DNA of 52,403 bases, filler included, from Basidioascus undulatus (taxonomy: Eukaryota), in the NCBI GenBank assembly GCA_000826855.1. It is 3 parts of 3 records of this genome, joined end to end, with 100 filler letters (N's around TTAATTAATTAA, not from the genome) between each part and the next. Parts side by side here need not be neighbours in the genome. Positions count along the whole stretch, not along the records: positions 17,523 to 34,936 come from JTLS01000533.1; 2 more parts are not named here. The stretch is one strand, 5' to 3'. The position numbers and the translations under genes were made by a program. Shown piece after piece: positions 3,086 to 52,403 of the stretch. Every line of letters begins with the position of its first letter. Positions within the stretch are counted from its first letter, which is position 1. The notes beneath the pieces were generated by a model that worked only from the letters and a program-made list of their open reading frames with translations, was not told the DNA's origin and made no database searches.

Positions 3086-3828
3086 CTACTGCCCCTCCCC
3101 GCGCCGTTCCTCCAACCACCGCGCGACCCACTGCTCGACGCGCTCCAAGTTTCCCTCCATGTCGCCGACGTCCTCGCTCACGAGCTCGACGACGGCGCCC
3201 TCGCCGGGGAAGGCCTCGAGCGCCTCGGAGAGACAGGTGCCGAAGATCTCGGACTCGTTGTTTTCTTGGATCTTGTGGAGGGGGTAGTTACTGGAAGGGG
3301 GGCCGCCTCAGATGAGTTCCTGAGAGGTGTAAAGATGGGATGGGGGTGCAGAAGGAGGGAAAGGAAGGGGGGAGAGGGAGGGGGAAGTACCGAGCCTCGA
3401 GCCGCTCCCAGAGCTTTGTATGGTCGCAGCGAAGGACGAGGATGAGGTCGAGCCATGCTTCGGGGAAGATCTCGGACGAGTGCCAGTCGAGGATGAGCCC
3501 GCCCTTGTCTACGAGGGGTTCCAGTGCGTCGAGGACCTGGCGTCCCACCCATCACCCTGTCAGTCCCTCCTCCCCTTCAAAGGAAACACCGAGCCAGACA
3601 ACGCACCTTATCATCATCAACGATCCAGCTCTCCCACTCCTCGTCCCAGCCCTCATGCAGTCCCTTGTCCTTGACCCAGTCGCCGACGTTGACGTGCGTC
3701 CACTCCTGCTCCACGCTCGCCGCCGCGGAGAGGGATGCGTGGAGGGACTGGGCGTGCGTGGTCTTGCCTGTGCCGGGCGTGCCTGTGATCAGAATGTTGG
3801 GCAGCCTGCGCGCTGGTGGTGAGGACAT
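3086..3828 (-). CDS. FAP7: Adenylate kinase 6 / Fap7 P-loop ATPase (40S maturation), 3 exons
   Basis: PNILITGTPGTGKTT, WIVDDDK, LILDWH, LRCDHTKLWERLEAR, NYPLHKIQENNESEIF. Stop TAG at 3088-3086. Confidence 0.93.
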
Positions 3829-5212: not shown

Positions 5213-6163
5213 GGTGTGGGGCTGGGAAGTGAAACTTATTGGGCTGTCGGGCTGGCTTGTGGGAGTGTGTGGCTTGAAGTGGGATCTGGGACGCTGAAGG
5301 CAAGGGTCAGCCTACATGAAGTGCATCAACTCATGCAGCCCGTGCTTGACGTCGTCCCGCATAAAGCAGAAGGAGCTCGTCCGTGCTCGCTGCAAGCCGT
5401 CGCAAACTCCCGCGTTCTCATTCAGGGTGATCTTCCTCTCTGGCGAGAGAAAAACCAGCAGCAGCTGGCAGCCGTGGTCATATGCGTGCCACCCCAAGCC
5501 CGCGAGGGACGGTAGGAGGGAGGGAGGGTACTTGAACCCCAATCACATGCACGAGACTTCACTTTCAAAGGTTCGTGGAAAGGACACTCGTGTACTTTGA
5601 GCGTCGAGAGGGCCCTTTTGCCGATTGTAAGATAGCGCTTCGGCATACAGTGACAGCCGGGCCGCCTCTAGATGGACACAAGGTCATTCAGCCGGCTGGG
5701 TGTCCAAGATACCGAAGAGGCCGAAAGAGATATTTTTCTGAGATTTTTGGTGGGCCTGCAAGGGCGGAGAGGAAGACTAAGGCTGGGCGCAAACGAGTCG
5801 GTGGTGAGAAGGCCTCACCTAGCTCACGGCTACTTCTTCCAGAATTTCTTGACTATATTGCAGGCCAAACCCGGCATACAAAGCGGAGGGCGCAAGGCAT
5901 TTTGCTCTGCTGTGGAGGACATGTGGACACAGCTTTGGCAGTGCAATGCACAGCATGCAGCAAAGCACGCAGAACAAGCGAATGTATGCAGCACAAGGGA
6001 CAAGGGGGGAGGGGCAGGTAGCACAAGGAGCGTCCCTCTGGAAAATAGAGTTCTGAAGATAGCTTTGGTCTGATGAGAAGGAGGGGAGATCCTAGAGCAA
6101 AGTTGAACTCATCCGCCGGCGCAAAAAGTGGACAGCAAGCTGCAACTGCAAGCCTCGCGGCCT

Positions 6164-7055
6164 TCACGCGGGCTCCTCAAAGGTAAGGGTCCGGTCTTCT
6201 TCCTTCACCTTGTTGCCTGACCACTTTGAAGCGCCAAAAGATCATGTCAGTCGTATCCGAAGGAGGAGACGGAAGTCCAAGCATGGGGGGTGCGTACGTT
6301 CAGGTACCCGCCGTCGCCGATGAGCGTGAACGTGCCGGACTTGGCGAGGTCTGCAGGGCGTTGTGAATCAGCGTTTCCTCTCAATTTTTTTATAACTGTG
6401 ATATAAGTGAGATCCTACAGATCTCATAGCTGTGTCGGTTGCAAGTCCACGAGGTACGTCAGCAGCAGCTGCACGGCAACATGACCACCTCCAAGTAGAC
6501 ATACCCAACGGTCCCTCCAATGGCGAGGTCAAACTCCCCGTGCTCGTGCTACCAGTCCACGCCATGCTCGCCCTACCACGCGGTTTCATGCTCCGTGTGT
6601 ACGATCACAGCCTACGCGAGCAAGCAACGCAAGCAAGCAACGCAAGAGGTTCAGTGTGCCATGAGCTAAAAGTTGCATGGGCTGGAGTGCTGGTAAGCAC
6701 AACGCACTTTGAAGTTTGGCCATGTCTTGCGAAGCTCGCTAACAACGTCTTTGGTAAATTCCCCGCGTTTCTGTTTGGGGGAATCGTCAAGGCACTTGGG
6801 AGAAGCTGGGGTGCAGGCGCAGTTCCATGGGAAACGTACCTTGACGTCCTCCGCCGCCATCCGGACCAACGGTTGAGTAATGCCGCCGATGGCCACGCTG
6901 ATGATACTAAGGGGTCCAGCACAAGGGAGGAGCGGTCCTCATACCTGGCGCACATCGAGCTTCGCACCGCTGCTCGAAGGTGCGGGCAGCGCAATGGACA
7001 TGCTCGCGAGCGCGATGACGGATGCGGCAAAAGTGAAGCGGTTGAGTAGCTTCAT
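6164..7055 (-). pseudogene. Small secreted protein of a YvgO-like family (GDGGYLNW motif), 6 exons, three in-frame stops
   Basis: Signal peptide MKLLNRFTFAASVIALASMSIALP. Spliced product ...KRGEFTKDVVSELRKTWPNFK AVIVHTEHETAW*GEHGVDW*HEHGEFDLAIGGTVG YEIYLAKSGTFTLIGDGGYLN WSGN.... Stops at 6939-6941, 6573-6575 and 6549-6551. Confidence 0.7.
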
Positions 7056-16198: not shown

Positions 16199-17422
16199 AT
16201 GGCCCGCCCGTCGACCGTCGGTCCCGCACCGACACCGAGGGTCGTCCCCAAGCTCGCATTGGATGGTTCGGCGAACGAGGATGGGCATGTTGCATTCTCG
16301 TACTTTGCAAAGGTCCGTCCGCTCCATCCTTCCTCCTCCCGAATCCGGCTGACATCCACCCACCCCACCCAGCTCGCCCTTCCCGAGTCCCCCCAGGCGC
16401 AGTCGTACCCGCTCTTCCCGTGTGCGCCGTCCTCCCAGATCACAGCCCTAGCATACACTGACTCCCAATCCATCAGGTGGCTCCCTCACCCTTAAAACGC
16501 ATTCACTCCACCCCCTCGCGCCCTCCCTCTCCTCCGCCGCGGGGCGCACCGCCCGTCGTGCCGCCCGGCGCCTCGGCATCCCCGTCAGCCACTCGCCCGC
16601 GCCGGAGACGCCGCTGCCACCGCAGGTGCGCGTTGCGGACGGGCAGGTCGTTGTCTACGTCCCCGGGTCGGGCGAGGGCAGACCCGCTAGCAGGCAGGGC
16701 GCGGGCTCGCCGCCTGGTGGGGAGCGCTCGAGCGGAGGAGGGAGCAGGGGGTGGTTGTTGTTGCTTGAGGTGTCGACGCGGGTGGTAAGGGGCTTGCCGA
16801 GATGGGCTCACACTGTGCGCCCTCCCTCTCCTACCCATCCTACTTCCCTCGTACGCTGACACGCACATACCCCGCAGCTGTATCTCCCCATCCCCCGCTC
16901 GCTCTCCTCGACGCTCCGCTTCCGGCCGCCCCTCCCCTCCTCCCCGGAGCACCTCGACATCCAAGTGAACCCTCGGCTCATCGCGCGCCCGCGCTCGCGG
17001 CGGCCCTCGCTCGTCCTAGTCGAAGAGCCCCTTTCCTCCGGGTCGTCCTCGGACGCGGACGACGACTCCGGCGACGCCGAAGAGGAGTCGTACGTCGAGG
17101 GGACGTTCCAGGCCTCCGAGCGGCTCGAGATCAAGTGGGCGGTCGCGCTGCCTGAGGAGGAGGGCGGGCGGCGGCTGCGCGCGGATGCGGCGAGGGAGGA
17201 CGTGCGCTGGACGGTCGGGGAAGCGGAGAGAGAGGACAACGTAGTTGTCCTTGATTGGGAAGCGCAGATCACGCTCCAGGGGCTGCACCACCCAACAATC
17301 GCCGACTCGCTCATCCTCCCGCTCACGGTCGACTCGTTTGGGCAGCGTACGCGTTTCTCGAACCTCTCCATCTCGCTCCCCTCCTCGCCCGAAGGAACTC
17401 TGGCGTCCTGGGACTTTCTCCC
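16199..17422 (+). CDS. Hypothetical protein, 3' partial (runs into the contig end)
   Basis: High GC3. Three canonical introns give an open frame: MARPSTVG...SYFAK|LALP...FP|CGSLTL...EVSTRV|LYLPIP...EGTFQASERLEIKWA.... Confidence 0.65.
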
Positions 17423-17522
17423 NNNNNNNNNNNNNNNNNNNNNNNNNNNNNNNNNNNNNNNNNNNNTTAATTAATTAANNNNNNNNNNNNNNNNNNNNNN
17501 NNNNNNNNNNNNNNNNNNNNNN
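17423..17522. other. Artificial contig spacer
   Basis: 44 N + TTAATTAATTAA (stops in all six frames) + 44 N. Confidence 0.98.
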
Positions 17523-17811
17523 CCGCCCCCCCCCCCCCCGCCCCCCTCTCCAAGCCCCTCCGTCCCATCTTCCTCACGCCCGAGAGCTCGTCTCTCCCCG
17601 TCCTCGACCCGGAGGAACTGGGGTTCTATCCGGTCGTGCTGGTTTCGGCTTCGAGGTGCGTCCTCATCCCAGGCAAGGACAGAGAAGGGAGAAGGTGCTG
17701 ATTGGGGTGGTGCGGGTGCGGGAAACCAGATACGTTCCTGATCGGGTGGAGAGGCGCGCGTGGGGGGAGTACGTCCAAGGGAGCGGGGACGACCATGAGC
17801 TGTGGAGCGAG
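17523..17811 (+). CDS. RIT1: Internal exons of RIT1 (initiator tRNA A64 2'-O-ribosylphosphate transferase)
   Basis: PLSKPLRPIFLTP...FYPVVLVSAS|RY...YVQGSGDDHELWSE, matching the RIT1 motifs KPLRP and YxQGxGDDHE. Intron at 17656-17729. Confidence 0.8.
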
Positions 17812-17890
17812 GTGCGTTTGCCGCTCCCCTCCCCTCTCCCTCCCCTTTCCCCCACATCCCTGGCTCATATGAAATCGCGCTCGTGTACAG

Positions 17891-18019
17891 CCCGGCCACA
17901 TCGCCCGTAACTGCCCCGAGGCCGGCGGCGCGCCCGGCGCAGGCGCGTACGGTGCGGGCGCGTACGGGTACGGCGCCGGTGGGTTCGGCGGTGCGGGCGG
18001 TGCAGGGCGCAGCTGCTAC
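17891..18019 (+). CDS. Single orphan exon of a CNBP/Gis2/Byr3-type CCHC zinc-knuckle protein
   Basis: AG...GT-bounded 129-nt exon: PGHIARNCPEAGGAPGAGAYGAGAYGYGAGGFGGAGGAGRSCY. This is the end of one knuckle, a Gly/Tyr linker and the start of the next. Confidence 0.75.
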
Positions 18020-18076
18020 GTGTGTTTTTCCTCTCCTCCCTCCCCTCACCACACCTCCTCCCCCCTCCCCCGACAG

Positions 18077-18319
18077 GCCAAGGACGCGCACGTCGGCCAA
18101 GTCAAGACCTTCTCCGCGCCCGCCGCCCCCTCCGTCCCCGAGCTGCCGTCGGACTTCGCGTCCGCCCTCTCCGCGTACGACGCCGCCGAGCCGACGTTCG
18201 AGGCCCCCGCCGCGGCGAAGAACGCCGGCGAGGCGCCCGAGGACGCGGGCAAGGGTAACGTTGACGGGTTCCTGGCTTTCCTCGAGAAGGACTTCCCCAA
18301 GGAGGAGGCGCACCACTGA
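18077..18319 (+). CDS. ATP14: Terminal exon only of mitochondrial ATP synthase subunit h
   Basis: AKDAHVGQVKTFSAPAAPSVPELPSDFASALSAYDAAEP...FLAFLEKDFPKEEAHH*, a typical fungal subunit h C-terminal portion. Confidence 0.8.
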   Translation, partial: AKDAHVGQVKTFSAPAAPSVPELPSDFASALSAYDAAEPTFEAPAAAKNAGEAPEDAGKGNVDGFLAFLEKDFPKEEAHH

Positions 18320-19289
18320 GGTGTGTGAGGGGAATGGGGGTTGGGAGGAAAGGTAGATGAGGCGGAAGAGCGTGGGCGGGGATGAAACCGGATTGCACTC
18401 CGCACATCGACTCGCTTCGCATGCCTGACGTTGGCCATTGGAGTGGTTGTGTGGGGGCTTGCGAAGGCGCCCTTTGTTCTCACCCGTCTTCTCACACCCC
18501 GTACCTTCCTACGCACTCACCTCGCCCTCTTCGCCCATTCACCTACCCATACGACGCGTGGTTTTCGGCATCGAGCACTACAACTCCCATTCTCCCGTTG
18601 AACCGCTGAACCTCCCGTCCAAGTTTGTAATTCTCCGCTCCCCTGCTTCGCACGCCTGCCCCTTCGATCGACCGCCCGTGCCGAACTTGATCGACCTACC
18701 CTGCGCAGGGCACATCGGCGCATAATGCCGCCCCTGCCGCTCGACTGGCGAACCTTCGTTCTCGCGCGCATCACGCTCTGCTTCCGCTTCTCTTCTCGCT
18801 CGCTCATCCACTTCGCCTTCCTCTCTCACCTTGCCTGTCACCGTCCACGTCCCACTCATTTCTCTCCATCCCCCTCAACCTACCAGCGCCGCCTTCTCTT
18901 TCCCCCTTCCCCTCCACTATCCAACCTCCTTCCCGTTCCGTGCGACCCGAACTCCAGCCCGTGAGTCCTCACCAAGGCCCGCAGATACCACCATCCTACT
19001 GCGGTTGTGCACTCACCCAAGATGGTGCATATATGAAGTCTGTCTGATCCTCGTTCGGCCCGGCAACTTGCGCTATGGTTAGACGTGCGCTGATGTTGCG
19101 TGTGGGGGTGAGCGGCGGGTGGGTGCTTGCGCTATGGGTAGCTCGATCGGATCGGGTGTTAGACTTGCTGGGCTCAACCGAGGCGGTGTAAGTTGTTGCT
19201 GCTTGCTGGCTTTTAGGATAATCTAGGTGGCATGGTGGTTGCTGGGTGGTGAGTCAAATGTGTCAGCCTTTTTGGCTGACGGAACTTTC

Positions 19290-21700
19290 ACTCTTCATTT
19301 TGCATTTGCTTCGGACCATGGATCATCTGTTTCTGTCTTCTGCCGCGCAAGCAGTTAGTGAGCGACCTCGTCTTGTCCACATTCTTGAGCCGCTCCGGCG
19401 AGGCTTTCAAGAATGCAACAACAAGCATCGGTGCTCCCCATAGAGCAAACTCCAATCGCAACTCTGGCGGCGGGCGCTCACCGCGGTTGAGGAAGGCTTG
19501 TGCGCGCCGGGCGTAGCGGGGTTTGAAGTCTTTGAAGTCTGGCGTACAGCGAGGGCTTTCAGTTTCGCTGCCATTTGGATCAAGTCGAGTAAAATGACTC
19601 ACAGAAGACATAGACTATATTGGCGGCTATAAGAGTAATCGTGCGGAAAATGCGGAGGCACGCAAGCCATACATACCGACGCACCGACACCGCCTGTGAA
19701 CTACGGCAGCAGATACAGAGCCTAGAGAATAATGGAAGGGAGTCTTACTTGGAACAAGAACATGCTGCCAGACTGCGGGGAAGGCTGTTGGCTTCCATGC
19801 GGGTGTGCATTACAATGGAGAGTAGACGTACCTCGCCGGCGTTGAACCCTTTGTACTGAACGAAGATGATGGGTACCGCAGCGAAGAGCAGCTAATCATC
19901 TTGGACAATTCAACCAGGCGTTAACTCGGGTTTCGTCGACTTCCCATCACCTTGAAAACATCGCCTCACCACACCGTAGATAAACTGCTCGTTTGGGACA
20001 GATAGTGAGCGAGTAACCCCGCAACTTCGGAACACGAACAATGTACCGACATGTATATCGTAATTGCCGCAAGCAGCGGCTCCTGAAACAGCATGGCGAA
20101 CGGGCGCTGGAGGATGAGCCGGATGCGCTTCGACGTCTTCTGCGTGTGCCGTCCGAGAGGGACGTAGATCCGCGATTCTTTTGGCCTTCCGGACCAGAAT
20201 TGTGGGTGCGTACATCTCAGGAAGGCAGAAGAAGATGATCGTGCAGACGAAGTCCTAAGAAAATCACTCAGTCTCGTCAGGGCAGCAGGAAAGGCGAGGC
20301 GGAAACGCACAAAGCCCGTGAGCAGCCAGTAGATCGCTCGCCATGCTATCCCGTTGACGGACATGACTACACGAGCCGTTTTAGATGGTTTTCCCCCACA
20401 AAGCAGGGCGACCGGCACTCACAGCCGCTACATATTGGACCCAGCGCTGGACCCTAAACGATGATCTCAGCATGGAAGCAATTTCTTGCGGAAAGAAAGC
20501 ACCCACCAAGAAGGGCATGAGCCCGAACACAGACATGCTGATGCCTCGTTGGACAGGGTCCCACATGTCGGCGAGTGTCCCTCCGCACACCACGAGCGGT
20601 GCGGAGCTGTACATTGGCCAGGGGCACAGTGGTCAGCGTCGCTCTTTCCGTATATGCAAGCGTCCTGGTGCTTACGCAAAACATCCTCCGATGAAGCGCG
20701 TTATGAACAGGGTTTCAATGTTCTGCGCAAGTGCTGCGCCAAGGTTGAAGACGTTGTACACGCTGAAAGCTGCCAGCATGACCTTCATGCACCAAAACGA
20801 CATCAGCGCACGCACGACAGCACCAGCCTACGCGTGCACGACAGCAGCAGCCAAGCAGCAGCGGTACACACGCCGGGATTGGGTAGGTGGAACGACAAGC
20901 TCACCTTTTTCCTTCCCCAGCTCTCGGACAGGCTGCCCCAGAGGAGGGTCCGACCCCGAACGCAACTCAGTCAGGCCCGAATACGAGGTCCACGCTGTTG
21001 CGAACAACATACGGCATAACCAGCTACTGCGTCGGCGTTCAGTACAGCACCTTGGGCATAAGAAGAACAAGGGACAACGAACAACGTAACGGGCAGAATG
21101 GCGGCGATTCGCTTGACCTGAAAGTACTTAATGACGTCCACGGTGATGCCGGATGGGGCTGAAGAAGCTGCACGAGGAGGTACTATCAGCTCGAATGAGC
21201 GAGCGTTGAGAGAACTGAATGGTACACACCAAACTGTGAACAGCAGTACAAATCTTCAGATAAATCCCTCGGTCCTCCTAAAATCCACCGCTCACCGTCG
21301 CACTGATGAGTGAAGCATATAGTTCGAGAAGGGACGCCTGCAGATCGACGATCGATCACCCGCTTTAGTACCAGCAGCCCGATAACGAAGGTCAGCCACC
21401 AACGACAGGCGACCCCCAAGTTCTGGAAGTACGATTGAGCGGGTCCCGTCTGTATGAGAGTAGGCGGGTGGTCCAGGTCTTCGTCGCTGAAGCTCACGCC
21501 AAAGGGATCCTTGCCCTCGGTCTTCGCCCCCTTCTCATTCTCTCCAAATTCCTCGTCCAACGGCGCCGGGAGACCGCGACCGAGACCCTCTCCCGGGGCC
21601 GTCGCGCCCGAGATGGACACGATGCCGCTCAAGACCGTGCGCTTCAGCTGGAGTTGGTGCCCGTCGGCCTCGGACAGCGTCTTCTCGAGGTTTCAGAGGT
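19290..21700 (-). pseudogene. MFS drug:H+ antiporter (DHA1-like), frameshifted and lacking the final TM segments
   Basis: SSAPSG, GP/LLWGSLSESWGRK (1-nt frameshift near 20945-20950), LAQNIETLFITRFIGG, GGTLADMWDPVQRG, WRAIYW, PEMYAPTIL, RPFAMLFQEP, PPELRL. Boundaries are approximate. Confidence 0.8.
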
Positions 21701-22908
21701 GCTTACCGAATGGGGTGAAGCGTCTTGCGGTTTGTACACCGCAAGAAAATATGGGGGAAGAGTGCAAGGAGGGATCGTTGCATTGGAGAATGTCGTATGC
21801 GGCAGTTGCACGGCAACTGCTCGGGCGGCACGCAATAACACTGCACGGCCGAGTTTTGACAGCAGTCGCGTGCTTGTCAGACGACTTATCATGTCACGGA
21901 GATATCATTTGGCGTTCTGAGGGGAAAGTATTGAACGTCCATGCGGCCCCGGTGAGGAACAGGCCCTCAGAAGCAAATTCCCGATCACCGACGCTGGAGC
22001 AGCGTTCTCCCAATTTTCTTTAACATCGAGAGCCAAAGGGAGGTCTTCGACATCCAACACATGGATGCAACTTACGAATAGGCTGTGGTTCATTATGAGT
22101 TCATTACCTGCATCCTTTGAAGCATGCAGGTCAAATTGAGCACTTCACAGCGGCAAAACACACTCGAATGCACTGGAGTACTTCGATTCCGAGTCGCTCC
22201 ATGGCAATTACCCCAGCTTACGACCTTCTGCATCATGACCGACTTAGGCTATGATCCTATTTTTTCAAGTAAGTTTTACATGACAACGCAGTCGGAGCGA
22301 GATCACGGCGGGTGTCGATTGATGTCGCAGCGAAGTGTACTGGACGTTCTGACAAGTCAACCCGCGTTGAGCCTGTACACATGTACACATCCCCGTACAT
22401 GTCCTCGCATGATAATTTCGCTTTTACAGACTATGTCGCGCCTCTCAAGAGATAAAGCGTATGTGTGGAAAGTGTACGACTGCCGCACCGCGGCCTCCAG
22501 AATGTCCGGCCAATACCGGGTGTGCTTTTATTATTGAGCAAGAATTGAAGATTGGATTGAAGATTATTATTGAAGATGTATGTGGGAGGTCAAGGAATAG
22601 AGCGACGCCCATTGTAAAAGTTTGTTCAGGGCCGGCCCTTCGGCGAAGGAGGCCCTTAGGGTTCTTTTCCTCCCCTCATTATTCTCCACCTCCTCCTCCT
22701 CACATCTTCCCTCTTTTACCCTTAACACCCTTAAAAGGTGCGGTCGCTTCACCTATCGCCCACCCTACGCCGCCGCCGCCACCCTCTGTCGCCGTCGCTC
22801 GTTCGATTTTCGGCTCCCGCGCGGTGGCGCGAGGCGGGCGGAGCTCTGTGGCGGCACTTGGAGCTGGTCAACTGACCGGGGAAGTTTCGGGGGGATGAGC
22901 AGTTCGAG

Positions 22909-23769
22909 ATGTCCGACGACGAGGAGCGCCACAACCAGACGTTCGAGTCCGCCGGTGCCGGCGCGTCTCTGACGTACCCGATGCAATGCTCGGCCCTTCG
23001 CAAGAACGGCCACGTTGTCATCAAGGGCCGCCCGTGCAAGGTGCGTGCGGGTGCGGCTGCGAGCTGGCGGAGAAGGGGGGCGCCTGACGGAGGTGGGGAA
23101 CACAGATCGTCGACATGTCGACCTCCAAGACCGGCAAGCACGGTCACGCGAAGGTCCACCTTGTCGCCATTGACGTGAGTCTTACACAGTCTTTAGGGGA
23201 AACTTAGCTGCGTGCGGATGGATGCGGGCCAGGGTCTGGAGGTCCCTCGACGTTCCTCTGCCCCTGCGTTCGCCGGGAATCCACGCAGTATCCCACATCT
23301 CCCCATAGTACACTGACATTACCGATATGCCCCGCCGGTAGATCTTCACTGGCAAGAAGCTCGAGGACATCTCCCCCTCGACCCACAACATGGACGTCCC
23401 CAACGTCACCCGTACTGAGTACACCGTACGTCTTTCACCTCGCTTTGGGAATCCTTGCCGCGAGTTCACCTTACGGGGCTCTTAGCTCGTCAACATCGAC
23501 GACGGCTTCCTCAACCTCCTCACCAACGACGGCGCTGAGAAGAACGATGTTCCTCTCCCCGAGGGCGAGCTTGGCGAGAAGATCGAGGCCGACTTCGATG
23601 ACGGCAAAGAGCTCATCGTCACCATCGTCACTTCCGTGCGTCATCCCTGTTTTCCGAACAGGCGGGGTTTGGACTGGAGTCGGGCTGACACGGGAGGGTG
23701 CGTTGGTGGTATGGGTAGATGGGCGAGGAGCGCGCGCTCTCGTACAAGGAGGCTCCCAAGGGCAACTAA
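22909..23769 (+). CDS. HYP2: Translation factor eIF-5A, 5 coding exons plus a 5'UTR intron
   Basis: [68 protein letters not shown], with the hypusine motif [12 protein letters not shown]. Stop TAA at 23767-23769. Confidence 0.98.
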
Positions 23770-26596
23770 GCGTTGTCCCCGCCGGAGTTTGCTGTGCGTG
23801 AGGAGGGTGCGGCGTTTGTGTTGTAGGGCTGGCTTCTTAGTGGTGGACTCTCATATCTTTTTTTCCTCCGCATCTGTGCATGTTTTGTGTAACGTTACGA
23901 GGCGCAGCATTTTACGCGTCCGCATTTGAACATCAGCTGGCTGCGTCGAACTGCTACTGCTAGGTTAGCATTGTGTCGCAAAGATCTTGGAACGTCCGTG
24001 CACACGTAGCTCGCGTGCCTGTCGCCTGCCATGAATGCTCGCGTGACGTGCTCGCAGACATCGTTGTTGCTCGAAAGGCACGCAGCTACCGCGCTGGTGT
24101 CTTTGACTTGATGACCATTGCATCGGGCTGCGAATGTTGGGACGAAAGCACAAGCTGGGATAAAGCGGCAAGAGACGGGGGGTCGCTTGTCATGATGAGG
24201 GAAAACGCGGCGGAGACACGCAGTGTGATGCCGTTGAAGGCTGACCTGCCTACAACCTTTTTTCTTATAATTATCGTTGAGGCCCTTCAAGTAGGGCTCA
24301 ATCACCTTGAATCGAATTGGTATCAAACCCTCGGATGGATTTTCACACACCCCCGCCTCCTCTTCCAGAGCGGCATCGGCCCGCGCGAGCAGGTCATGAA
24401 CGTAAAGAACAGCTCCATGGCGGCGTGGTTGCCGGATGAGAGCGAGTGGATCGAGCTGCCTGTTGGGTGAGTGGCCGTGCCGGAACGTATCGTAAAACTT
24501 AGCTCTTGGTTCAGCTGAACAGTGCCTCTCTACGGTGAGCACTTTATCGACCACCCCTCAGCTTCAACCTCGGCTACTCGAACGTGGTAAAATTCCTCAC
24601 AAACCCTCCTTCTCTCTCAGCTCTTTTTGGAACTGACCCTCTGCGAACTCACAACAGTCCTTCTTCGACGCCACCGCGGCATACGACGGTTTATCGAATC
24701 AGTGGCTTCCTTCATGAGTGTAGTTCCAGAATTACCATCCCTATTCTTTATCCATTACATACCCTCACGCGCGTGTTTGATTTTTGACAGCGTGAAGCAG
24801 AGCCCACTGAGCCTGAGCAACGGAAATGCGGAAAGCCAACCCGCACCGCTTCGCTGCGTGCGCCCATCATCTCTCACCTCATATTACTTACCATCCGTCT
24901 TGCCGCAGTGGCAACACCGCACGGACCCTCCCGCTTCGCGTTTTTGAGAGACTCTCCATCATACTCCCACATACAATCCTCCTCCTCCGCGCCATCTCCG
25001 TCTCGCCACTGTATAGCGAAGAGTGGCCCTTTTTGCGGATCGTTTCGTTCAATCCAAAGTAGTCCGGTAAACAATTTCAATCTTGTCCATTACAGTCCCA
25101 GAGAGTCCATGAATGATGTTAGTCAGTTCACGAATGGTTCGGATAATTCTTGGATAGCTTTGGTCTGGCGGGTGTCTCGACACTATCCGGACCGTGTCTG
25201 GCTGGCGTCCGTCGGATAGAGCCCTGTTCGCCGAACTGCTCAGAAACACAAGAGACAGTCTATGGATTAGTAAAGGCAGTTCATAGATTGATCCGGATTA
25301 TCAAGGACTGTCTGCAAAAAAAGGCCCTTTCTTCGCTATCTTCCAGGGCTAACAGTCAGACCAAGGGCGTGCTTTCTCCCGCCCACACCCCGCACCCCGC
25401 TCCTGTGCTTCAGCGGCGGCGGACGGTGTTGAGGATGGGGCCGCAGGGGGACACCGCTGAGTTCATTGGTTCGGAAATCCAGCGGCGGCGAACGCATTCG
25501 ATGATCAGCCATGCTGGAGCGCTGGCTCTCGGCTGTATGTGCGACCAGTTCGCCGGCGGCAGTCTAATTTCATGGAGGCTCGCGACAGGGGGACGTCGAA
25601 CTGAGGTTGAATGCGCGACGGTCTAGAAGGACGAGAGTGTATGGAGGGTACCGGACCGAGAATTCTTGTCGTACCAAGCTCCGTCTCGCCACACCGTCCC
25701 GTGTCACCGCACCTGCCACCGTTCCACCCCATTTACCACCTTTACGCCATGCCGTCCTACCGTTACACAGAATCCAGCAAGGAGTGGATGTTGCTGGCAG
25801 GGATGCGTAGTTCACCCTGATCAACTGATCTTGTCAAAGCAGCGATAGGCTCGCTCCGTCACCACCGCACCAACTCGCTCGATCAGACCCAGTCTCCCTG
25901 CCATCTTACTGGATTTCTCAATCTTGCTGGATTTCTCATCGTACTGATACTGTCGCTGTGCTTGTTCATTCGATGAGACTGTGCTGCTCCCCAGTTATCT
26001 CGATCAATACACTCATCAGCCGTACAAGGCTTGTTTACAGTACTAGTATGGGCGCGCTGCGCTGGCCCCTTGGTCGCCTTTGTCGATGGAGGGCGGCCAG
26101 CTACCGGCGCCCTTGCGCCCATCCACAGCGGTGGCTTACCACTCAGGCAGATCAACCGGCTTGAGCGCCAACTGCGCGGAGACACGTGGAGTCTGGCACT
26201 GACAATCCTGCGCTATTACTACAAAACCTGGTGTTCGAAGACTGGACAAGCTGTGCTCACCAAGAAAGTCTTCTGGGGTGCAGATCAGAGAGATTGCGAG
26301 AATAAAGCTGGAGAAGGGAGGCTGTGAGGTTGAGGCGTGAGTGCGACGTTTTGCTGTCGCCTCTGACGTGACATCGGTCATCTGTCGGCTTGCTCAGCAA
26401 GTCGCATCCTCCCAAAAGTTTGGTGAGCGCCTTCGCGACTGCCGCTGCCGGGGTTGGCTTCGCACCGCTCGCTGCCCTCGGTGGCTCGGCTTGATTGTTC
26501 ACTTCAACATCTGTTTTATTCTCTAGACTCACCGCTGTAGCTCTATTCTCGACTCCGACAACAGACAGTTCCCTTCCCCCTCCTTCTCTCCCCAAA

Positions 26597-27820
26597 ATGC
26601 CGACGTCCCTCGCCGCGCAGCTCCCGGCGCTGCAGTCGCTCGACGCCGCCCGGCTCGCGTCGCACACGCAATCGACGGCGTCGTTCCTGTTCACGCCCGC
26701 ACAGGCGCAGTCGCACGACCTCGACACTGTGCACACCCTCGGTCTGAGTGGGCTGGATGAGCTCAAGGAGCTCGACCCGGCGCTCACCGCGTTCGAGGAC
26801 GCGCTCTTTAACGATGCGGCTAAGAAGACCGACCGGACGATGTTGAACAAGGCGGAGAACGAGAGCTTGGATGCTACGGTTGATGGGCTGCTCAAGAGGC
26901 TGGGGCCGCACTTGCCTGTGCGGGCGGCGGCGAAGGTGCTCGAGTGGTTGATTCGCAGGTTCAGGTGCGTCCACCCACCGTCTACCTTTTCTTATCCCTT
27001 GAGCCGTTTAGACTGATTAAGGAGGACAATATAGAATCCACGAATTCAACATCCCCGCCCTCATCCTCGCCTTCCTGCCGTACCACGACTCGACGCCCTT
27101 CGCGCGCATCCTCTCCCTCCTGCCTCTCTCGTCCCCCTCCGCCCCCGCCCTCTACCGCTTCCTCCTCCCCTCCCAGCGGTCCTCCCAGGCCCTCCCACGC
27201 GCCGTCCTCGTAAACGCCATGCTCAAGGACGCCGACGTCCTCCGCCTCGTCGCAGAGGCCGTCCCCGAGTCCACCGATGCCCCGCACCGCGCGCTCGCCT
27301 CGTTCTGGAGCGTTACGCTGCTCGAGTACCTTGCGCGCGTGAGGGAGGTCGAGGATGGCCCGAGGACAAGCATCGTGATGGCTGTGAAGAAGGGGCTCAC
27401 GGCGGACGGGTGGCCGGACGCGCAGGTGCGTGCTTTCTTTCGTCTCGTCTGCTTGGACCCCGTGCTCATGAAAATGTTCTGGTAGGCCGGCGCTCGAATG
27501 GTCTTCGCCGCCCTCTCCCAAAAGGTGCAGCTCCCCGACAAGGCCGTCGCCGCGCTCCTCCACCCGCTCGCCCGGCACCGAGGCGACGCCGAAGCCGCGC
27601 ACGTCCTCGCCACCGTCTTTGCCGTCGTTGAAGCGCAGGAGGAGCTGGAGACCATGCCGGACGCTGTAGTCGACGCGGTCCTCTCTATCCCGTGTGTCCC
27701 TCCTCCGTCTCCTCATTCCCCTTACTCTCACGCTTACCCTCCTCCACCAGCGACGCCCCCACCCACCTCCTCTCCTCCTTCCAGCGCTACGCCCTCCCGC
27801 GCACTTTCCCCCTCCTCCTC
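26597..27820 (+). CDS. UTP10: UTP10/HEATR1 N-terminal part only (about 330 aa), truncated
   Basis: MPTSLAAQL, SFLFTP...DLDT, DRTML...EN, KVLEWLIRRFR|IHEFN...LPYH. The expected long HEAT-repeat remainder is absent. Confidence 0.88.
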
Positions 27821-28317
27821 CCGCCCCTCCTCCTTCCTAAGCAACTCCAGCTCCCCCACCCGCGCCCGCGCCTTGCTCACGATCCGCCTGCCCACCGCCC
27901 ACCCGTACGCGCCCAGCGCCGCGCCCGCCCCGCTCGCGGCGAAGAGCAGGTTCCGCGCGCGCGGGTGCTTGTACGCTGCGGAGACGAGGTACGAGAGCGT
28001 GGAGGTGAGCAGCAAAGGAAGGCGCAAAGCTTGGAGGTGCGTGTGATGCGTCAGGAGGAGGCGCAGGCGCGCGAGCGTCGAGAGCCGCTGGGAGGGTGGC
28101 GCGCCGCGCTGTAGGTTCCGAACTCACCATTTGCGCTTCCTTCGAGGAGGAAGAAGAACAAACGTACCGTGGATAACTCGTCCAACGCAGGAATGAACAC
28201 TCCGAGTTGGGCGAGGTGGACGCCGGCGAGCAGGCCTGCAGACAGAGGGCCTAGCAGCCGGAAGAGCCGCTCCAGGTCCGCGGTGGGATGGAGATGCACG
28301 TGCGTGTTGATGGGCAT
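27815..28317 (-). CDS. Small membrane protein, DUF1772-like, apparently 3' truncated
   Basis: Hydrophobic segments LLGPLSAGLLAGVHLAQLGVFIPAL, PLLLTSTLSYLVSAA and LLFAASGAGAALGAYGWAVG. The family call is tentative. Confidence 0.45.
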
Positions 28318-32596: not shown

Positions 32597-34936
32597 ATGG
32601 CACCTTCATCTAAAGCTCACGCCAACGGCAAGATCAAGGCGGGAAAGCCGAAACCCGGCGCTGGCCGCAAGCCCGCTCCCTCACCCGCGAAGGGCAAGGG
32701 CAAGCCCCAGTCCAAACCTGCCGCCGCCGCCGCCTCCGTCGCGCCGAAGTCCAAGGCCCCGAAGGCCAATGGCAACGGCGATGAGGACGAGCTCCACCGC
32801 GAGGTGCTCGCGCTTGGGGGGGACGAGGAGGACTGGCGGATGATTCAGGGGGTCGGGAGCGACGACGAGTTGGACGCCACGGATGCGGCTGTCGATGTGC
32901 GTCTTCTCTTTCTCGGTCTTGCTGTGAAGGGTGGGGAGCTGATCATTCTGGGGATATGTCTGCAGCCGAAGCTGGCAAAGGAGCTCGCTAAGTTCGTCAA
33001 GGGCCTGAAGTTCGAGGACGTCCGGCCAAGTGCTGCGCCCGAGCCGGAGGCAGCAGAGGAGAGCGGCGAGGAGGAGGAGGAAGGTGATGAGGATGAGGAG
33101 GAGGAGGAGAAGCCTGCCGTGAAGGCGGCTCCGGCTGTGCAGGAGCCGCAAGATCCCGTACGCTCACCCTCCCCCATCCGTGCCCCGCCTCTCGAACTCA
33201 TCTGTTCCATCTCTCGTCCCCAGAAAAAGCTCGTCCCCATGCCGCAATGGTACCTCCAGCCCCTTCCCACTCTTCGCCCTCTCGCCTCCGCCCCCCCTGC
33301 CCCCTCAGCGGACTACATCTCGACCCTCCTCAAGCGCGGCACCGACGTGCTCCGCGCGCTCCCGCCCCCTCCCTCGCAAGCCTCCGACTCCAACTTCCTC
33401 AGGCAGATCCTCACGTCCGGCACGCTCTCGGACCGCGTCTCGGCGCTCGCGCTGCTCGTGTCCGAGTCGCCGCTGCACGCCGTCGACTCGCTCGAGACGC
33501 TCAAGGGCATGGCGAAGAAGGCCAAGCGCGAGGAGGCCGTGCGCTCCGTGCGCGTCCTCGTCGACTGGTTCGCTGGGCCAGGCGGCCTGCCCAGCGACCG
33601 CAAGCTCAAGTACTTTGGCGACCAGAAGGACCTTGCCCACCCCGACGTCGGCGACAAGCACCTCGTCCTGTGGGCGTTCGAGGACTACCTCAAGAAGTAC
33701 TTCTTTGAGCTCCTGCAGCTGCTCGAGGTGCGCCCGTTCCAGACCAGTTCTTGTCTACGGCTTCCGCTCATTCCGCTCGCGCTGCAGTCGTTCTCGCACG
33801 ACACCCTCCCCTTCATCCGCGGCCAAGCAGTGGGCTTCATCCACCAGCTCCTGAAGGAGAAGCCCGAGCAAGAGCAGAACCTTCTCCGTCTCCTCGTCAA
33901 TAAGCTCGTGCGCCTGTTCCCACCCCCCTCCCCCGCCCAGGCAATCCTCGCCGCGTGCTTACAGGCATTCTAACCCATCAGGGCGACACCTCCAAGCCGA
34001 TCGCGTCCAAGACCTCGCACCACCTCCTCCTCCTCCTGACCGCGCACCCGGCCATGAAGTCCATCATCGTACGCGAGGTCGCGTCGCTCGCGTTCCGGCC
34101 GGGCACGGCGCCCTCGGCGCAATACTACGCCGTGATCACCCTGAACCAGACGATGCTCGCACGCGGCGAGGCGGAGGTGGCCGGGCGCCTCGTCGAGCTC
34201 TACTTCCAGCTCTTCGAGGACGTCCTCCGCGTGTCGGGCAAGCGCGAGGGCAAGAAGCCCGATGCCGCGGCCGGGAAGGCGGACGCCAAAGGCAAGGGCA
34301 AGGGGAAGTCGGCCGCCCCGCCGAAGAAGGGCGGAAAGAAGAAGGGCAAGGACGCGGGGGAGGAGGAGCAGGACGAGATCGAGGAGCGCGACGCGAAGAT
34401 GATCGCTGCGATCCTGACGGGCGTCAACCGCGCGATGCCCTTCGCGCAGATCGAGGACGCGGTGTATGTTCCTCCCAAGCGCTTCCATTCTCGGTTTCAG
34501 CGACTGACTTGCCGGACTTTTTACGCAGTTTTGAAAAGCACATGAACACCCTCTTCCGCATCACCCACTCCGGCACCTTCAACACCTCTATCCAAGCGCT
34601 GCAGCTCATCCTACAGGTCACTTCCGCGCGCGAGGTGCGTCGCCGTCCATCCGTCCTCCTCTTCTCCTATCTGACTCTGACTCGACATGCCACACCGGCA
34701 GGCCGTCTCCGACCGCTTCTACCGCACGCTCTACGAGTCGCTGCTCGACCCGCGCCTGGCGTCGTCGTCCAAGCAGGCGATGTACCTCAATCTCCTCTTC
34801 CGCGCGCTCAAGCTCGACCCGTCCCCCCCGCGCGTCGCCGCGTTCGTCAAGCGCCTGCTGCAGGTCCTCGTGCAGCACACGCCGGCATTCATTTGCGGCG
34901 CGCTGTACCTCCTCGGGCAGGTGCGTCCTTCCCCCA
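32597..34936 (+). CDS. MAK21: MAK21/NOC1 (CEBPZ) ribosome biogenesis factor, 3' partial
   Basis: [11 protein letters not shown]...[64 protein letters not shown]...KQAMYLNLL. Confidence 0.95.
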
Positions 34937-35036
34937 NNNNNNNNNNNNNNNNNNNNNNNNNNNNNNNNNNNNNNNNNNNNTTAATTAATTAANNNNNNNN
35001 NNNNNNNNNNNNNNNNNNNNNNNNNNNNNNNNNNNN
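34937..35036. other. Artificial contig spacer
   Basis: 44 N + TTAATTAATTAA + 44 N. Confidence 0.98.
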
Positions 35037-36041
35037 CTGGAAGGGGCTGGGCGGCGTGCCGGGGAGGGGGGACGATGCGGAGCGGAGGGTAGCGGGGGAG
35101 GAGGTCGCGCTCTCGGGGGAGGAGGGCACCGACGCTGGGCGGGCGTACGGGTGCGCGGAGGACCTCGTAGTGCAGCGCGACGCCGACTTCTTGGGGGAGG
35201 AAGAGGCGGACGAGCGCTTCGGGGACTTGACGGGCTTCTTCTTGAGTTCCCCCGGCGGGGGGTACACCCCCGCACGAATGCTTGCGTGCGTGTAGACCCA
35301 CGTGTCTGCGTGCGCTTGGAGGGGGTCGGAAGGGTCGCACGTACAGGAGTGCTCAACTTGGAATGAGTAGTTCTGGGTGAGGGGGCCGGGCTGTCAACCA
35401 GTGTTGGAGGGAGGGGAAGAGGGAGGGGAGAGGGAAGACCTACCCCCGCTGAGCGCTGCCACGCTGACCAGGAAGCGGACGCTTGCGACTTGGCGTCCCG
35501 CGGGAGATGGCGGCGGAGGTAGTCGAGGAACTGAGGGGACGCAGTGGGCGTTTCAGCTGCGTCTTCGGCAGGCTGGCTCGAGCGGCAAGGTGGACATACC
35601 ACAGGCTATTTGAGAGGCAATCCCAGACTCTTTTATCAGTACTAAAGACGATAGTCTGGAGAAAGGGAGGCATCAGACACACCCTGTCGATGATCATGCA
35701 CTCGCCACGCGCACACCACGACATGCCCGACCCGGGCGTCTGCAGCGCGCTGTATGCCATCCGCCCAGCCCAAAGACGACCCCGGTCAGCCAAATGCTTC
35801 TCACTGGCTAAAGCTGGAAATCCAGGAATGAGCGGACGCACGCATACTGGCGCGGTAGCCAAGAGCGGCGGGTGCTACCCTTGCTCTGGATGATGCTCGA
35901 GTCGGAGGCGGTGGCGGTGGCGAACTCGGTGTAGACCTGTGGAGCGATGTATAATGAGAAATAAAACATGGTAAATGGGTATAGAGTGAGACTACGCACG
36001 GGAGGAGAGTCTGAAGGAACACAAGTGCGATAGGGCGGCAT
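35037..36041 (-). CDS. Hypothetical multi-exon protein, 3' partial (Ser/Pro/Lys-rich)
   Basis: ATG near 36041 (MPPYRT), several GT-AG introns and a GC-rich frame PPPGELKKKPVKSPKRSSASSSP running to the contig end. Confidence 0.45.
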
Positions 36042-46859: not shown

Positions 46860-49800
46860 CTACAGGTTATACCGGTCGCGCAGGCGCTCCTGGATGGGCG
46901 CGGGCAGGGCGGCCATTTGCGTGGGCCAGTTGTCGCCTGCGGCGGCCTTGAACGAGTTGAGGAGGGTGTTGAATTGCGCGTTGAGCTCGGCAGAGGGCGT
47001 GCTCCACCGGACGACGGCGTTGCAGAAGAAGGGGAGGGACTGCGAGCGAGCGAGCGCGAGGACGGCGAATGTGTCAACTCGACCTGCTCCTACAGCAGCC
47101 GCACGGCATCTATCGAACGCACCTTCGCCAGCCCGCTCGGGTTCGCCTGAACCATCGTGCAGAACCCACGGAACGCCGAGTCCTTCTCCTCGTTGTCCTT
47201 GATCTCCCACAAAGATTGACACCTATTCCCACCTCCATCCGATTAGCATTGGGACAACCCACGCGTCTCAAAGTCCACCCGCACTCACCAAGCGGTCGCG
47301 AAGTGCTCCAAGTGCGGGGCGACGATCTCCGGGCAGACTAGGCCGATGCGGCCGATCGTCACCGCCGCGTTCTCGGACAGGCTCTTTACGCTCTTGGGGT
47401 TGAGCAGGATAGGGACCAGGCGCTCGATGAGACCAGGCACGAACGGCTTGAACTCGCTCACGTCCGGTACTAAATCCCACCGACAATGTCAGCACGCACT
47501 CTCACCGGTAGGAGGAGAATGAAGCGTTCACGCACCGCGTGTATAAGACATGGCGACCTCTCCCGCTGCCCAGGCGGCGTTGTTGCAGACGCTGACCGAG
47601 TCCATGCGCGGGTCGACCTCGATCTGGTGCGTCATGTCGGGGAGCAACTGGCCGAGGGCCGGACGGAGGATACCGAAGCACGAGACGGCGAGGTCGCCGA
47701 GGAGGGCGTAGGCGGACTGGCGGACGGAGGGCTCGGGGTACTGTTTTTTCGAAGGCACGAATCAGCTTCCGTCTTCGATCTCAGAGGGAAGAGTGGGGAA
47801 AGGAAAAAGGAAGAGCGGGAGAAGAGCGGGTAACGCACCTTCAAGCAGTACGACAGCAGCTGCAACAGGGGCGGGTCGCTGCTAGCAATAAGCTGCTCGG
47901 CGTTCTGGCCGAGGCCCTGAACGAGCCCCGAGAGGAGGTCGAGGGCGACGATGACGAACGTCTTGTCGGGCTGGTCCACGTTGGCGTTCTCGGGGAGCAG
48001 GGTCGCCTGGAACGCGGCGAGGTTGGCGCGGATGATGCGCACGCAGCGCTCGAAGACGGGCTGCGCGTAAGGTGCGAACGAGTGGCCCGCGGCGACGGTT
48101 ACGGAGGAGAGGCACTACGGGCGTCCCACCGAGCACCGATCAGCCCCTTCGTCTTCCCTTCTCACACCTTTAACCGAACAGCGCAAAGGAACGCAGACGC
48201 ACCTCGAACAGCGGAATGAGATCCTCGTCCTCGTCCTTGAGCTTCTGCCACTTCTCCACGAGCGGCTGCATCAAGACGTCGACAAACTCCTTGTTGTCGA
48301 GCGCGTCGCCGACGGCGTCCGCGAGCGTCCCGATCGCGTCGTACAGGATGAGCAGGTTTTTCTGCTGGTACTTGGAGAACGCGAACACGAGGTTGCCGAG
48401 CACGGGGTGCAGGAAGGGCGCGAGCTCGCGCCCGGCCTCTTCCTCGAGCGTCGCGAACGCGCTGCATCCCGCCTCTTGCACGCGCTTGTTGTTGTCCAGG
48501 ACCATGCGCAAGAGCTGCATGATCCCACCATGAACTTGTCAGCTGCCGCTGGTTCGAAGGGGCACGGACGTGCGAGGCGGGGCCGGTGGGGATGGGCGGC
48601 CAGCGAGGAATAGGGAAGGAAGCGGAGGGGAGGGGAGGAAAGGGGAACGAGACGCACCCCTTCCATCGCAGGGATGAAGTACGTATTCCGGTGCTCGTCT
48701 GAGAGCGGCTGGACACACCAGCTCGAGTACCGCCCGAGCGTCCAGCACGTGATGGAGCGGACGAGGGGCTGCGGGCCGGGTGGAGTGGGGTCGAAGAGGG
48801 TGGAGAGGGGAGAAAGGGGGAACGGAGGGTGTAGGGGAGCGCGGGGGGAAGGGAGAGAAGGGAGAGAAGGGATGGGAGGAAGAAGGAGGAAGAAGAGATG
48901 AGCGTTCGATCCAGCGGGGTGGGATGAGAAGGCGGAGAAGCAGCGCACCTTCGGGTCGTTGAGGGATTGGATGAGGAATGGCACGAGCGTGGGGAGGTGA
49001 GGCTCAATGCCCTCGATGCAGCCTGCCCGTCCCACCCCGCACACACATCAACGGCCGTCCTCCTCCCTCTCTCCCAGCCCCGCCAGCCAGCCCAAAACGC
49101 AAACGCACCTTCGGCGATCGCGCCCAATGCGAGGATGCCCGACTCGCGGTTGAGCCAGTCGGGGGCGAAAAGTCGCTCCTTGAGGAGGGGGAGGAGGATC
49201 GCGAGGAGGTCGTCTCCGTAGTTGACGGCCATGACATCGATCGCGGCGGCAGAGCACTTGCGGAGGTTCCACTCGGACGTGAGCTCGTCGTCGTCAAAGT
49301 CGTCGTCGTCGTAGTCCTCATCCTCGTCCTCCTCGTCCTCGTCCTCCGCCCCGGCGTCCCGCCCCATCTTCGCCATCCCTGCGCCCGCCGCGCCCTCGCT
49401 CGCCTGCGTGTGCGCCTTCCCGCCGTAAAACTTGGGCTTGATGTCGGACTCGCGATCCGGCACCGCCGCGTCGTCCTCGTCCGTATCGAGGAGGATGAGG
49501 TCCGTCTCGGAGTAGACCATCCCCTGGAGGAGGACGGGCGCGACGAGGGGGAGGAGCGGGCGAAGGTGCTGCGCGAGCTCGTGCTCCTCGGCGAAGGTGA
49601 GCCAGAACTCGCACGCCTCGAGCGCGACGGCCTCGTCCTTGTCCTGCGTCGAGTAGAGCATGAAGGTCGCGACGTTGTCCATCTCTGGCATGAGCTTGTC
49701 AGGGCGCGCGGCCAGCAGCTGGACGAGCGCCGCGCAGACGTGTTGCCGGACCTCGGGGATCTCGTCCGACGCGCGCTGGAAGAGCGCGGCGATGAAGGCG

Positions 49801-51267: not shown

Positions 51268-52403
51268 ATGCCCACAATCCTGAATACCTCCCACCGCCAC
51301 TCAAACTCGATCGACTTCGGGGATTCCTCGGCGGACTTCGAGTTCTCCCTCCCCTCCTTCCGCGCCCAGTCGAATGCCATCAAACAGCAGTCGAACGACA
51401 TCTTCAACCGCTTGCATTCGATCGACGAGTTGCGTCTCGTCTTATAGCCTGAGGAGAGCGGGGCAAAGGGATGGGAAAGAAGCTGAGAAAGGGGGAAATA
51501 GGGACGCAAAGTTTGTGGAGGAGGTCGCTAGGGCTTTTCCGGACTTCCCGCTGGTCGGTGCGTGCTTTGCTTTGCATCGTTTTCATCTCGAATACGTCTC
51601 TCGTGTGTACTTACTTGTTCACGTCGACAGCGAATCAGCGCTGCGGACCCTGGTACACTCCCCCGTCCCTCGTCCGTCCCCCTTCCATCGCCCTATCTGC
51701 CGTCACCCTTCCTTATCTTCTTCCTCTCGCACTCATCCACCCCCCAGCCCAACTCCAGCCCCCAAACGCACGCCTATTTCAAGGTCCCTTTCTTCGTTAT
51801 CTGATGAGATTGAGAGAGAGAGAAAGCTGATGCGTTGTGCTGGGGGCAGAGCACCGACGGCCACACGCACGTATGGTCATTCTCGCTCCGAAGACCAAAT
51901 CTGCACCTTGTACCTTTGATCGTACAACATGGGGGGTGCGCGCCTTTCCTCTTCCCTTACACTCCCATCATCCCCTTTTTTCCCTCCTCTTTCGGTCGTT
52001 CCCGCCCCTGACCTCCCTCACAAATCCAGCATAGTCCTTACCGACTCAACCCGCCGCGGCAAGCGCTTCCCCGACGCGCTGTCCAAGACCGTCCCGCTCT
52101 GGTGTGCGACGCTGAACGCCGCGCTATACACACCCTGCTTTTGCTCTTCCTCCCCCGATGGCGGGCTCCATACGCCCGGCTCCGCCGTCAGCCCGAGCGA
52201 GCACTCTTCAATCTCTGCGCTCGTTCCGGGGTGGGCGGAGAGCTTGAAAGTGCGTTGCCCTGCCCCTTGCCTTCTCTTCCCTTCCCCTCTCCCTTCTCCT
52301 TCCTCCTGTTCTTCCTTCTTCCTCCTCGACTTCCCTCCCTGGATGCCCTTTCCAAGAGTAAAGAGAGCAGAGACTGATCCCAAGTCAACATTAGGCCTCC
52401 GCC
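51268..52403 (+). CDS. RIT1: RIT1 N-terminal exons, 3' partial
   Basis: IFNRLHSI..D..FV, ANQRCGPWY, AYFK|STDGH...WSFSLRRPNLHL, DSTRRGKRFPDALSKTVPLWCA, VSPSEH. Confidence 0.92.

Follow-up and report, generated by a model that had tools for sequence, protein, structure and literature searches.

Positions 17523-18319 of the 52-kb window (the whole stretch of DNA analysed) contain four exons that are drawn from three separate fungal genes: two exons assigned to RIT1, one that encodes part of a CCHC zinc-knuckle protein, and the last exon of ATP14. RIT1 encodes tRNA A64 2'-O-ribosylphosphate transferase, and ATP14 encodes subunit h of the mitochondrial F1Fo ATP synthase. The coordinates of the exons and introns proposed for this region in the initial annotation all hold, and the RIT1, CCHC and ATP14 exons were found to splice, as had been described, into one uninterrupted open reading frame (ORF) of 585 nt with a single stop codon at its end. 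The spliced frame corresponds to 194 codons; it runs off the start of the contig and has neither a start codon nor a promoter context. The intron between the two RIT1 exons (17656-17729) begins with GTGCGT and ends with CAG. The two introns at which one gene gives way to another (17812-17890, 79 nt, and 18020-18076, 57 nt) begin with GTGCGT and GTGTGT, respectively, and both end with CAG. The coordinates of all features are listed in Table 1.

Table 1. Features of the three-gene region and the preceding linker. RIT1 and CCHC (CNBP/Gis2) are the likely family names of the respective fragments; X1, X2 and X3 are the sequencing runs described in the text.
Feature	Position	Strand	Remarks
Artificial linker	17423..17522	.	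N44 + TTAATTAATTAA + N44; next contig begins at 17523
RIT1 exon fragment	17523..17655	+	Rit1_C match; starts in poly-C; frame open to contig start
Genuine RIT1 intron, 74 nt, GT..AG	17656..17729	+	skipped in spliced X3 record 10
RIT1 exon, phase 0 end	17730..17811	+	Rit1_C match
RIT1 intron 5' start, RIT1-only part	17812..17823	+	in X1 record 1 and X2 record 4; CCHC contigs match only from 17824
Probable mis-join 1: 26-nt C/T word common to RIT1 and CCHC-gene introns	17824..17849	+	sole overlap of X1 records 1/2 and X2 records 4/8
CCHC-gene intron 3' end	17850..17890	+	X1 record 2, X2 record 8
CCHC zinc-knuckle internal exon	17891..18019	+	half knuckle, Gly/Ala/Tyr-rich linker, start of next knuckle
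Next CCHC-gene intron 5' start	18020..18027	+	X1 record 2, X2 record 8
Probable mis-join 2: 21-nt C/T word common to CCHC-gene and ATP14 introns	18028..18048	+	sole overlap of X1 records 2/3 and X2 records 8/9
ATP14 intron 3' end	18049..18076	+	X1 record 3, X2 record 9
Last coding exon of ATP14 (ATP synthase subunit h), including stop	18077..18319	+	Pfam ATP_sub_h; true ATP14 locus onward

The exons were compared to Pfam profiles for assignment to gene families. When the two RIT1 exons were scanned separately against Rit1_C (PF17184), 17525-17655 matched profile positions 174-209 of 271 (E 0.0023, 17.8 bits) and 17730-17811 matched positions 222-239 of 271 (E 8.9e-5, 22.5 bits); the matches follow each other collinearly along the profile, and each falls below the gathering cut-off of 27 bits. 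When the RIT1 exon of 43 residues was used in a word-based search for homologues among longer proteins (E up to 10), 182 candidates were returned, of which none was scored, and thus the RIT1 assignment rests on the two sub-threshold Pfam matches. The CCHC exon reads PGHIARNCPE, followed by the linker and then by ...RSCY, where the next knuckle starts. The beginning of this exon matched zf-CCHC (PF00098) over profile positions 9-18 of 18 (E 0.013, 16 bits versus a cut-off of 20.8). Judged from sequence, RIT1 and CNBP/Gis2 are the likely family names for these two fragments; the names do not bear on the verdict about the joins. The ATP14 exon (18077-18319) matched ATP_sub_h (PF10775) over profile positions 32-68 of 69 (E 1.2e-10, 41.7 bits), which is above the cut-off of 25. 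In an alignment with six subunit-h proteins from basidiomycetes, the exon corresponds to their C-terminal 80 residues and shares 57-68% identity with them. The N-terminal ~48-51 residues of the same six proteins have no counterpart in the window.

Compared to the parental genes, the fragments in the window match parts of the RIT1, CCHC and ATP14 family profiles, namely about 66 of 271 Rit1_C positions, one knuckle and half of another, and 80 C-terminal residues out of the ~125 of subunit h. No further pieces of Rit1, zf-CCHC or ATP_sub_h were detected by a Pfam scan of the 95 stop-to-stop frames of at least 110 residues in 12899-39132 (196 such frames window-wide), a size limit by which short exons would be missed. 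The same scan revealed only ATP_sub_h, eIF-5a and a sub-threshold U3snoRNP10. The latter two lie downstream on the same contig and strand (+) as the three-gene region: an eIF-5A exon at 23486-23926 (E 7.5e-17) and a U3snoRNP10/UTP10-like piece at 27486-28043 (E 2.5e-6, below cut-off).

The window is composed of three contigs split by two linkers, the second of which (34937-35036) is of the same make as the first (N44 + TTAATTAATTAA + N44); the middle contig spans 17523-34936. Since the linkers are artificial, sequences on either side of a linker are not assumed to be genome neighbours. The three-gene structure forms the opening 800 bases of the middle contig, directly after the linker, and this contig opens with a poly-C run (17523-17546). 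The contig ends in the window (17410-17422, 17523-17546 and 34921-34936) are of low complexity and rich in C or C/T; the last letters of contig 1 are ...ttctccc, and contig 2 stops at gtgcgtccttccccca, after the first 16 nt of an intron. On the plus strand, an open frame that resembles a multi-exon gene (16199-17422; start MARPSTVG..., with a later exon of 187 residues) reaches the end of contig 1. No Pfam profile matched this frame at an E-value of 10 or lower, and on the evidence of Pfam it does not represent the 5' portion of RIT1.

Logan contigs of three public runs from two studies were placed on 17523-19500. Runs X1 (2014) and X2 (2025) are genomic, and each contained 98% of the words sampled from 17523-20500; run X3, from the same sample as X2, contained 57% of these words. 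Both X1 and X2 are marked as runs from which this DNA may derive; they represent at most two studies that are not clearly independent of the window. Logan contigs show presence and not absence: rare variants are dropped and some records are filtered.

Of the 20 contig pieces from the three runs, 18 were listed, and none of these 18 bridged a join while carrying unique sequence to its left and right. In X1, the region was divided between record 1 (17536-17849), record 2 (17824-18048) and record 3 (18028-19500). The break points were the same in X2, where the pieces belong to contigs of 8,652, 12,851 and 26,160 nt (records 4, 8 and 9) and the matching parts, at record positions 5994-6320, 6265-6489 and 22477-23949, are at least ~2.2 kb from the contig ends. 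X1 record 3 (4,361 nt) and X2 record 9 (26,160 nt) continue through to 19500. The only sequence common to adjacent contigs is a word of 26 nt (17824-17849) at the first join and one of 21 nt (18028-18048) at the second; to either side of these words the contigs differ. Past 17849, the RIT1 contigs carry at least 146 letters unlike the window, and the CCHC contigs carry sequence unlike the window both before 17824 and after 18048. X1 and X2 gave identical consensus sequences for these loose ends. Four loose-end words of the parental continuations were searched across the window with up to three mismatches and gave 0 matches each; the missing exons are, therefore, absent from the three contigs of the window. 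Sequence up to and including 17849 is the RIT1 locus, 17824-18048 is a CCHC-knuckle gene located elsewhere, and 18028 (or 18049) onward is the ATP14 locus. The parental continuations present in X1 and X2 led to rejection of a real chimera that replaces the parental genes.

We also considered a real chimeric locus that exists besides intact parental genes and arose by exon shuffling or by capture of gene fragments through recombination at the pyrimidine tracts. A true fusion would look the same in the assembly, with a 194-codon frame that is open and GT..AG ends at both hybrid introns, and short shared tracts could in principle drive microhomology recombination. Contigs cannot, moreover, prove absence, as a bridging path of low coverage could have been dropped. 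Against such a locus, neither join was bridged by the listed contigs of the three runs, and the X2 contigs are unbroken through both tracts, which a second context at like depth would break. Contig depth was alike over the three pieces (12.8, 11.3 and 16 in X1; 50, 45.8 and 43.7 in X2), such that no piece had a depth raised relative to the others. With a word length of 31, the X2 contigs, which pass unbroken through the tracts, show one genomic context for each piece. The three-gene structure coincides with the end of a contig, and a real locus would have to arise by two rearrangements in succession, no more than 250 nt apart and both located exactly in a repeat word. On this evidence, a real chimeric locus is considered very improbable. 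A fusion of low copy or subclonal nature, formed via the 21-26-nt intron microhomologies and dropped from the contigs as a rare variant, is judged to be just as unlikely.

The spliced contigs of X3 provided a second view of the exon borders. None of the runs listed is on record as RNA; X3 is on record as 'DNA?' yet is cDNA-like, in that an intron is left out of its contigs and the contigs break off at the borders of exons. Its depth was 113-174 on the ATP14 and CCHC exons versus about 5 on RIT1. The first RIT1 fragment (17523..17655) is covered by the spliced X3 record 10 as well as by X2 record 4. X3 contigs start or stop one to three bases at most from an exon border (at 17812, 17889, 18019 and 18074), and their loose ends were translated by hand in the frame of the adjoining exon. 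By this approach, the RIT1 exon ending at 17811 was found to be followed by 125 letters of another exon, absent from the window, which starts GLTPALFWAR. X3 record 11 covers exactly 17889-18019 and has other exon sequence on both flanks: the residues before 17891 (...ECYRCSK) complete, with PGHIARNC of the window, a CX2CX4HX4C knuckle, and those after 18019 (QCGGVGHLAR) complete the next knuckle. The sequence before 18077 translates as KELQGYKAPAQ; in the six orthologues, AKDAHVG comes directly after a segment with the consensus R-E-x-K-x-Y-K-x-P-x-x, and the translated residues agree with it. As translated, the CCHC and ATP14 exons are thus spliced to sequence that reads as that of their own genes, and the RIT1 exon appears to be spliced to other exon sequence. 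No chimeric junction was detected among the X3 spliced contigs listed, each of which runs into other exon sequence; this result also stands against a real fusion locus. Taken together, the proposal of real exon shuffling, which the initial annotation had offered as its alternative, found no support. The run contigs show the parental contexts and no others.

Both switches between genes were confirmed to be inside C/T tracts; the words that the joined loci share exactly span 17824-17849 and 18028-18048. Tracts of this type are extremely common in this DNA. A pattern of 21 pyrimidines had 128 overlapping matches in the window compared to 0.07 expected from shuffles, and the 52 kb contain 17 pyrimidine runs of at least 21 nt and 57 of at least 15 nt, with 61% C. 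Long pyrimidine (or purine) runs are observed elsewhere in the window, e.g., at 988-1026, 3350-3387, 35406-35438, 48843-48898 and 52270-52307. Within the three-gene region, the pyrimidine runs sit in introns. Different runs inside the window have exact words of up to 15 nt in common, and the second tract has 14 nt in common with the run at 988-1026. When scaled to a genome of ~34 Mb, the size suggested by run contig totals, with a per-letter match chance of ~0.52, the number of locus pairs that share at least 21 nt is roughly expected to be in the thousands, and that of pairs sharing at least 26 nt in the hundreds; these figures are our own estimate and not a measurement. An assembler that uses words or overlaps of ~21 nt or less would often meet such ambiguities.

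Template switching occurs at microhomologies of this kind. An artefact that precedes assembly was weighed, in which chimeric templates, formed for example by polymerase template switching at C/T tracts during library amplification, were assembled faithfully. The joins coincide with exact microhomologies, 26 nt long in one case and 21 nt in the other, which agrees with such an origin, which would also explain a chimera at a contig end. It would, however, require two independent switches within 250 nt that were both sampled and both preferred by the assembler, and no 31-mer path over the joins was left in the contigs of the runs that may have supplied this DNA, whereas graph ambiguity at a word length of 21 or less covers both joins with one cause. 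We regard template switching as a highly doubtful source of the structure.

The three-gene fusion is an artefact and no real biological feature, and almost certainly represents a chimera that the assembler created at the end of a contig. Mis-joining by the assembler through shared pyrimidine tracts was the reading preferred in the initial annotation, and it is supported by the lack of a bridging contig among those listed and by overlaps of only 26 and 21 nt. In the proposed error path, RIT1, the CCHC zinc-knuckle gene and ATP14 would be three unlinked single-copy loci, each with a pyrimidine-rich intron tract, and an assembler with a word or overlap length no longer than the shared words would have walked from locus to locus. 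By this path, the true ATP14 contig would have gained 326 nt from RIT1 and some 200 nt from the CCHC gene at its front. We infer both the word length of the assembler and the exact path of the error. Each hybrid intron would be composed of the 5' half of one real intron and the 3' half of another, and the GT..AG ends would, thus, be proper. Such canonical ends are expected from mis-joins inside introns and are not evidence of function. As the exons are all real coding sequence, matching phases are enough to keep the frame open. The suggestion that the match in phase at both joins could be chance is reasonable, as this has a probability of roughly 1 in 8 when the usual excess of phase 0 among introns is used.

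The structure was compared to two known types of event. Like other mis-joins through short words in low-complexity repeats, it has joins in short words of unlinked loci, at a contig end, that are not reproduced by other assemblies of the same DNA; it is unusual only in that both joins are in phase-matched introns and so mimic a spliced fusion gene. Exon shuffling and other intron-mediated events give rise to chimeric genes, including chimeric young genes in animals and plants. The region resembles exon-shuffled genes in its unrelated exons in one frame, canonical introns and phase 0 at both joins, but differs from them in that the run contigs, both genomic and spliced, provide no support for the junctions.

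A fusion protein was sought in protein collections with the ATP14 exon as query. The searches at 'near' and 'longer' lengths returned 99 and 11 hits, respectively, none of them near-identical. All hits carry PF10775 except one, which has no Pfam entry. The best BLASTP identity was 64%, with 58-64% over the full query for the best matches, and one partial protein was 83% identical over half of the query. Every named protein among the best matches is from Agaricomycetes. The source is probably a GC-rich basidiomycete, and the searched collection probably lacks both its own proteins and those of any close relative. No such fusion appears to be present in the searched collection yet, and the error seems not to have spread to protein databases.

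The value of this finding is for annotation, and it has no biological significance beyond that. Gene calling on this assembly would yield a false RIT1-knuckle-ATP14 fusion protein from the first 0.8 kb of the contig, and the three parental genes would be left with models that are truncated or missing. Our results suggest that the assembly systematically breaks or mis-joins at C/T tracts. The frequent C/T tracts of introns are systematic weak points of this assembly, at which breaks and mis-joins arise, and other contig ends therefore deserve the same check.
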